Under the pieces are notes generated by a model. The model saw only the letters and a program-made list of their open reading frames with translations, was not told where the DNA came from and did not search any database. From assembly GCA_977020255.1 (NCBI GenBank), contig CDROCS010006380.1, positions 124,001 through 188,000 on the forward strand: DNA of 64,000 nucleotides, read 5' to 3'. Source of the stretch: Obrimoposthia wandeli. Taxonomy: Eukaryota. Of the stretch, positions 58,204-58,751 are shown one piece after another. The translations under genes and the position numbers were made by a program. Within the stretch, counting starts at the first letter, position 1; every line of letters begins with the position of its first letter.

Positions 58204-58751
58204 ATGCTACTTCACAATATCAAATTAGTGAATATTAATTACAAGGGAATGGTTGTAAGTAACATTCAACACTTACCATTTCGAACTTCGAAGCCTCATC
58301 AGTATCGACTCAAGTGTGAAGGTTACACTATTATCATTTTCAAATCTGGTAATTTATTTTTACATTTATATATAATTATAATTTAGGGACATGTATAATA
58401 ATGGGTTGCAAAACAATGCTGGATGAAAGCACTCTTCCTTTTGATATAAAAATCGAAAGAATCCAATCAATCAGTCTCAGCAGCAATCTAGAAACATCAA
58501 TAAACCTAAACAAGATGAGCAAGAGTATGGGTTCGGAAGCTGTTTACGAGCCAGAAATCTTCCCGGGACTTCGATACGTCAAATACAATCCCCTATGCGT
58601 GAACATATTTGCGAGCGGAATGATTATGATACTTGGTGTTAAATCTTTAAATTATGAGTATCTGATTGGATGTATTTTGTTTAATATAGATCTTCACACT
58701 TGTGTTATTTATTTCCTAAACCAAATAGTTTTAAAAATAGATTTATCTTAG
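58204..58751 (+). CDS. TATA-binding-protein-fold protein, 2 exons (58204-58348, 58387-58751), 169 aa
   Basis: Splicing the 38-nt GT-AG intron gives IIFKSGTCIIMGCK; second repeat YEPEIFPGLRY..VNIFASGMIMILGVK resembles TBP YEPELFPGLIY..LLIFVSGKVVLTGAK. Confidence 0.88.

Follow-up and report, generated by a model that had tools for sequence, protein, structure and literature searches.

A shortened TBP-like gene with a probable mini-intron in Maverick/Polinton elements, and a candidate promoter box before their core genes

Introduction

The element described here is like Mavericks, Polintons and adintoviruses in its terminal repeats, its 6-bp target duplication and its genes for PolB, integrase, ATPase, protease and, presumably, capsid proteins. 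The question addressed is how capsid genes are controlled in such elements, and whether these go through a viral cycle. Parts of the picture are already in print. A figure legend puts the label 'TBP' on a MELD virus (PMC8502044); in the accessible passages of that paper, the label stands in the legend only, with a shortened form, an intron and a promoter box left undescribed, and a search of its supplement returned no TBP. Nematode Mavericks are reported to have introns in accessory genes close to their left end; this cargo is host-derived, and the core genes are intronless (bioRxiv 10.1101/2022.07.12.499685, accessible part). For intact vertebrate elements, an absence of introns is reported (Maverick comparison, PMC8502044, PMC8097293, accessible passages). 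Our literature search, in which subscription papers, figures and preprint supplements were thinly covered, brought up no work on a TBP of Mavericks or on an ATAAACA box.

Viral TBP-like proteins offer a further comparison. In herpesviruses, an early viral TBP-like gene (BcRF1/ORF24/UL87) and a TATA variant before structural genes occur together, and our locus is alike in both respects; according to the accessible passages of the same source, these mimics are large, share about 10% identity with TBP, act in a six-protein viral complex and serve TATT late promoters (PMC4893493). In contrast, the mini-TBP described here has about 150 aa and about 25% identity to TBP, shows no such partners and belongs to another family. 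TBP-like proteins of giant DNA viruses have likewise lost the regulator signature of the N-lobe, but most of them are accompanied by a viral TFIIB, and the first stirrup Glu is present in about 40% (PMC7221094, accessible passages), whereas mini-TBP retains both stirrup Glu and no TFIIB was found in the element. The structural matches from viruses at E<=0.001 number 24, and each is at least 189 aa long. Compared with cellular TBP and TRF, mini-TBP is alike in its predicted ten-strand saddle, three intercalating Phe, Pro191 and the acidic stirrup, but H2 of the first repeat is gone, H1 is reduced to one turn, one Phe is replaced and the specificity positions are altered.

Results

The mini-TBP gene and its element

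The window analysed is a stretch of 64,000 nucleotides of Obrimoposthia wandeli DNA (GCA_977020255.1, contig CDROCS010006380.1, positions 124,001 to 188,000). The mini-TBP gene lies in a Maverick/Polinton of family E2, which has 16,270 bp, starts at 55230 and reaches past the window edge (Table 1). Pfam matches were obtained for protein-primed PolB, rve integrase, packaging ATPase and a C5 adenovirus-like protease, several of them frameshifted in the E2 copy. The candidates for the double jelly-roll major capsid protein and the penton are conserved ORFs of 405 aa and 332 aa in the expected order, to which Pfam gives no match; we presume the penton-like and capsid labels from synteny and gene order.

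Exon 2 of the mini-TBP gene matched the Pfam TBP family (E 9.8e-12) and solved TBP structures (best E 8e-13), and exon 1 searched alone gave no match. In the 1.35-Gb genome, exon 2 occurs at least 150 times. The reading frame of the E2 copy is open, yet two residues that are near-invariant in the family, in strands S5 and S5', differ in it, and accordingly the copy in the window may be decayed. In the E1 copy of the window, exon 2 is frameshifted near 11,070.

The companion gene adjoins the TBP gene in every TBP-bearing family of the host that we examined. Its protein gave a weak fold match to T7 gp2.5/Enc34-like proteins (E 0.17-0.35, probability 0.6-0.99). It was also considered as the TFIIB of the element and was rejected, being mostly beta-strand.

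Table 1. Positions of the features discussed; plain numbers refer to the window, and other entries name their own contig or locus.
Feature	Position	Strand	Remark
Mini-TBP gene, Maverick family E1	10770..11269	+	exon 1 10770-10899, putative 39-nt intron 10900-10938, exon 2 10939-11269
6-bp target-site duplication	55224..55229		repeated beyond right end (window-equivalent 71499, locus L051)
Left terminal inverted repeat, Maverick E2	55230..55887	+	
Companion gene, predicted OB-fold single-strand DNA-binding	56313..56686	-	frameshifted near 56495 in window copy
IAP-like gene (BIR + RING)	57139..58140	+	
Canonical TATA box (TATAAATA)	58169..58176	+	35 nt upstream of mini-TBP start codon
Mini-TBP exon 1	58204..58348	+	48 codons + 1 base; most of shortened first repeat
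38-nt GT-AG intron (putative)	58349..58386	+	phase 1, interrupts Gly codon
Mini-TBP exon 2	58387..58751	+	strand S5, helix-less linker, full second repeat
Dual-specificity phosphatase-like gene	59225..59992	+	
TATAAACA box	60444..60451	+	upstream of packaging ATPase
A32-type packaging ATPase	60479..60970	+	frame breaks near end in window copy
TATAAACA box	61093..61100	+	upstream of pX-like gene
pX-like gene	61125-61553		downstream of TATAAACA box
TATAAACA box	61555..61562	+	upstream of integrase
rve integrase with chromodomain	61651..62680	+	frameshifted in window copy
CATAAACA box	62609..62616	+	upstream of penton-like gene
Penton-like gene	62677-63675		downstream of CATAAACA box
TATAAACA box	63597..63604	+	upstream of PZ-like gene
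PZ-like gene	from 63695		then major capsid, protease, exonuclease-like, PolB beyond window
E2 inverted-arm derivative	G000 C2062:243000-259000 and C3154:146000-165000 (L053-L056)		99% identical at two loci
Host TBP-like genes	G000 C238, C60, C1092, C968 (L119-L125)		
Companion-gene candidate intron elements	L064:1788-2135; relatives L075, L079, L074, L097, L084, L069, L091, L077		

Protein family, fold and selection

A representative search returned 623 proteins at E<=0.001, most of the top matches being short, at about 150 aa. Maverick core genes lie on 25 of 56 metagenome loci, including all six of the six loci longer than 7 kb. In six unsaturated comparisons between families, dN/dS was 0.15-0.35 in both exons, with 4 copies left out for stops or frame breaks. 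Between E2 and the other families, pS was 0.79-0.83 and pN 0.31-0.39; within families, dN/dS ranged from 0.10 to 2.09, values that are noisy or biased through the choice of best hits. Carried by the element in many copies, the mini-TBP gene evolves under purifying selection.

The structure was modelled on the intronless relative P0002, which is 50% identical to exon 2 (alignment A2) and stands in for the product of the window copy. The AlphaFold model, based on an alignment of 69 rows, reached pLDDT 97 and shows a ten-strand saddle, in the first repeat of which H1 has one turn and H2 is absent. Against a TBP structure it gave Z 13.5 and an rmsd of 2.5 over 149 of 154 residues. We consider it practically certain that mini-TBP has the TBP fold. 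The original prediction had described a TBP-like protein with a shortened first repeat and three of the four intercalating Phe, to be examined by structure prediction and by dN/dS across copies; the Pfam match and the saddle agree with this description, and so do the Phe positions given below.

In the family alignment, whose rows were picked by likeness to exon 2 so that conservation is inflated, positions follow yeast numbering, which was placed by alignment in repeat 2 and by strand register in repeat 1; a profile comparison aligned repeat 2 only and left repeat 1 unaligned. F116, F190 and F207 are present in every row, and the fourth intercalating residue, F99, is replaced by Pro in 46 of 49 rows under the assumed repeat-1 register. 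Under the same register, V71 is Asn in 46/47 rows and V122 is Arg in 51/53. T124 has become Met throughout (67/67) and N159 has become Ser in 65/67. Changes to Arg at I194 (63/67), to Cys at V203 (64/66) and to Asn at L205 (66/66) fall on the positions that alter DNA specificity in yeast TBPm3 (PMC1636458). The stirrup glutamates that bind TFIIB are kept, E186 in 63 and E188 in 64 of 67 rows. The linker has 14-28 residues in the family versus 33 in canonical TBP. With one intercalating Phe and both Thr/Asn contacts lost, binding to DNA could be weak or directed at sequences other than TATA.

Three relatives, P0064, P0080 and P0094, have a longer first repeat and may represent stages on the way from full-length TBP to mini-TBP. 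Five TBP-like genes belong to the host, namely two canonical TBP genes arranged head-to-head, two intronless divergent genes and one further split gene.

The insert in the mini-TBP gene

On recheck, the boundaries of the insert were correct as originally predicted, with GT at 58349 and AG at 58386 in phase 1 of a Gly codon, and so was the 39-nt counterpart in E1, which also runs from GT to AG in the identical codon and phase. Among the best 30 E2 copies, one of which is the window itself, GT is kept in 29 and AG in 30, with insert lengths of 37-39 nt; since E2 copies are about 97% identical, this retention reflects mostly recent descent. For E1, 15 of 20 copies gave inserts of 38-40 nt in a pattern search that required the ends. 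GT-AG inserts of 36-50 nt and 40 nt occur in the third host family, E4, and in the metagenome element L098, respectively. Four lineages (E2, E1, E4 and L098) thus carry a GT-AG insert in one codon. The interiors are as different as had been claimed for E1 and E2; across lineages they cannot be aligned, 24-230 of 300 shuffles reaching the observed score (the L098 slice being off by one base). Synonymous sites are saturated between the intron-bearing lineages, and the insert varies in length while both exons stay under purifying selection.

The intron, described as conserved in the original prediction, does not extend to most relatives. Three TBP-bearing families of the same genome are intronless at the site, the relatives P0002 and P0003 read in a single frame straight through it, and 50 of 56 metagenome loci are contiguous across it. 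The remaining six comprise one locus with an intron, one that is contiguous on inspection and four that match the second repeat only. Relatives that are contiguous across the site are better evidence for an intron than the retention of its ends among E2 copies.

These properties are those of a U2-type intron: GT-AG ends, a removal that yields the frame of the intronless homologues, and a free length. The alternative is that the 38-nt insert is a disabling insertion spread by the copying of a dead family. Many copies are indeed decayed, but this reading does not account for GT-AG inserts sharing a codon in four lineages between which synonymous sites are saturated, nor for an insert of free length between selected exons. 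It also leaves aside the E2 polymerase, which has a second GT-AG insert, likewise phase 1 in a Gly codon, of 215 nt (L051:6839-7053) or 136 nt (L058:5646-5781) depending on the copy and missing from five other elements; introns of host TBP have 47-48 nt. We therefore consider a disabling insertion very improbable, and the 38-nt insert, which is very likely spliced, is almost certainly an intron. In four runs that come from one sample, behave like DNA and are silent on splicing, none of the 15 joints listed of 188 skipped the intron.

Host TBP was ruled out as the source of the intron, since the two canonical host TBP genes are uninterrupted at the site. A tree of ATPase, integrase and capsid (25 rows, 8 of them less than half filled) rejects a single clade of intron-bearing elements (p-AU 7e-5), whereas the TBP tree (25 rows) is compatible with one (p-AU 0.27). 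The intron may have been gained once, with module exchange or losses afterwards, or several times in parallel. Among 17 alignments, which include 8 loci chosen for odd frame length, no precise intron loss was found in E2, and one copy has a 23-nt deletion within the intron. A strong proto-splice site as a general feature was rejected, AG|G being present in just 9 of 48 intronless relatives. In contrast to nematode cargo, the intron here appears to have been gained or lost inside an element-resident gene, and the polymerase gene carries a putative intron as well.

The ATAAACA box

ATAAACA occurs in 72 of 88 upstream stretches of core genes versus 3.7 in shuffles, with the qualifications that the stretches are not independent because the elements are related to each other, and that start codons were picked automatically and some are wrong. 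The stretches of 110 nt come from 23 elements and lie before ATPase, pX, integrase, penton, PZ, capsid, protease and exonuclease genes. The median distance from the word to the ATG is 36 nt (31-41 nt in 31/45 genes), and the base just 5' of it is mostly T. In all 11 of the 11 TBP-bearing elements the word is strand-biased, with 5-11 sense and 0-1 antisense occurrences. It is absent from the enriched words of 41 upstream stretches of accessory genes. A canonical TATA near -35 to -42 was found upstream of only 10 of 22 TBP genes.

A search for the A32 family yielded two more copies of a TBP-bearing family and also led to a TBP-less family, F. In six copies of this family, which serves as a control from one old, decayed and distant lineage without TBP in its shared parts, ATAAACA is not enriched (1-2 versus 1.6-3.1 expected), and it precedes 2 of 19 gene starts. 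TBP matches near 3 of 7 regions of this family are read as nested insertions. The viral contigs scanned contained no relative that could serve as an outside TBP-less control. The herpesvirus-type arrangement of a variant TATA box before structural genes is found here as a co-occurrence set against one control lineage. The genome has just 12 TFIIB-family matches, on 6 contigs, which indicates that the elements are without a recognisable TFIIB.

Discussion

We propose that mini-TBP is a private promoter factor for late genes, resembling the herpesvirus TBP mimics, and we hold this chain as a whole to be moderately probable. Host TBP would initiate transcription of the mini-TBP gene at its canonical TATA box, after which the mini-intron would be cut out by the spliceosome of the host. 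The product would fold as a TBP saddle minus helix H2. H2 largely carries the basic patch bound by TFIIA, TAF1, Brf1/2 and Mot1/BTAF1 (PMC7221094, accessible passages), and because H2 is absent from the predicted saddle, mini-TBP is proposed to escape TFIIA, TAF1, Brf1 and Mot1/BTAF1. Its rebuilt concave face may prefer C at position 7 of the box, that is TATAAACA over TATAAAAG, and the retained acidic stirrup would take host TFIIB, which would make an early-to-late switch. Judged by the sequence patterns, mini-TBP is conserved across a clade of Mavericks/Polintons and its gene is very likely spliced in the E2 family, and the protein likely binds the (T)ATAAACA box of the element and would recruit host TFIIB and Pol II to the genes for capsid proteins, packaging and integrase. 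The original prediction had offered two roles. Redirection of Pol II fits when it is narrowed to the box of the element's own core genes; competition with host TBP is less likely, because the TATA-reading residues differ throughout the family.

Considering host factors as readers of the box, ATAAACA fits the forkhead consensus, and a forkhead protein might read it, or else host TBP or one of the TRF paralogues, while mini-TBP acts otherwise, for example by raising the activity of its own early promoters. The alternative forkhead form, GTAAACA, is however barely enriched, with 0-4 sense occurrences versus 0.5-1.3 expected. Five TBP-like genes in the host would supply candidates for such a role, and wild-type TBP has been solved on a C(-25) TATA variant (1qn3, accessible part of the record). 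On the other side stand the strand specificity and fixed spacing of the motif and its lack of enrichment in the TBP-less family, and we consider reading by host factors unlikely.

The retained TFIIB stirrup and the missing regulator sites would also suit a decoy or repressor that binds to TFIIB or to TATA boxes of the host and lowers its transcription, in keeping with the host-modulating neighbours in E2 (IAP, phosphatase). Against this, the concave face has not decayed but is conserved in a new state; furthermore, the neighbours differ among elements, whereas the box goes along with mini-TBP. A decoy appears somewhat less likely than host readers. It would be less surprising to lose an intercalating Phe, and to have an SSB-like gene accompany mini-TBP in many elements, if the saddle were re-used with this single-strand-binding neighbour to bend DNA at the element ends in replication or packaging. 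Such a protein would have no need to keep the TFIIB-binding glutamates at 94-96% and would leave the box unexplained, and we regard this re-use as the least probable of the three.

The preferred reading, a private promoter factor, can be extended. An animal Maverick clade may run a two-stage, virus-like programme through one factor of 150 residues, the smallest two-repeat TBP encountered here, which would be free of host regulators, re-specified to TATAAACA and dependent on host TFIIB; the mini-intron may tie the switch to the host spliceosome and would mark swapped modules. We consider this extended reading evenly balanced between true and false. If true, it would represent a second, independent late-gene strategy of the herpesvirus type, derived from a true TBP and using host TFIIB. 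With a dedicated mini-TBP and a matching box, the control of the capsid genes can be tested directly, using no more than one small protein and some short fragments of promoter, and a natural altered-specificity TBP blind to Mot1, TFIIA and TAF1 would be of use in studies of Pol II initiation. The intron alone is a modest finding, and mini-TBP with its own promoter box is the part that deserves follow-up. Mini-introns qualify the view of Maverick genes as intronless, and they cause such genes to be missed by ORF-based annotation.

Further observations on the elements

Other candidate introns were noted. A small candidate ORF of two exons (58948-59191, plus strand) has a 34-nt GT-AG gap (59043-59076), is kept in 27 of 30 copies and sits downstream of an ATAAACA box at 58917; no relatives were found in other families. 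As this ORF is probably spliced and lies behind the box, introns would not be limited to box-less genes. The companion gene has a candidate phase-0 GT-AG intron of 41-46 nt in 9 metagenome elements, in which TBP is intronless where seen, and none was found in the host families checked.

Several other words recur before accessory genes. CTAAAAATAG, which we take to resemble a MEF2 site, stands at 57081, 58147 and 58893, upstream of the IAP, TBP and small ORF, with one instance in the other 55 kb. TGATTGG, presumably an inverted CCAAT, was found upstream of accessory genes in 7 of 41 stretches versus 0.4 expected, including those of the TBP genes in E4, E5, L080, L077 and L107.

At 33963-35862, the window holds a fragment that is 78% like the left arm of E2 (companion gene and IAP), and a TBP gene was not found beside it. 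A derivative of E2 with inverted arms of about 3.9 kb carries two TBP copies and is without protease and polymerase, and several further inverted exon-2 pairs are spaced about 8 kb apart. The terminal repeat contains a 31-bp hairpin (55350-55420), and its part at 55250-55720 has 19 AGGTCA/TGACCT words and three TGACGTCA palindromes, which we take to resemble nuclear-receptor half-sites and CRE sites.
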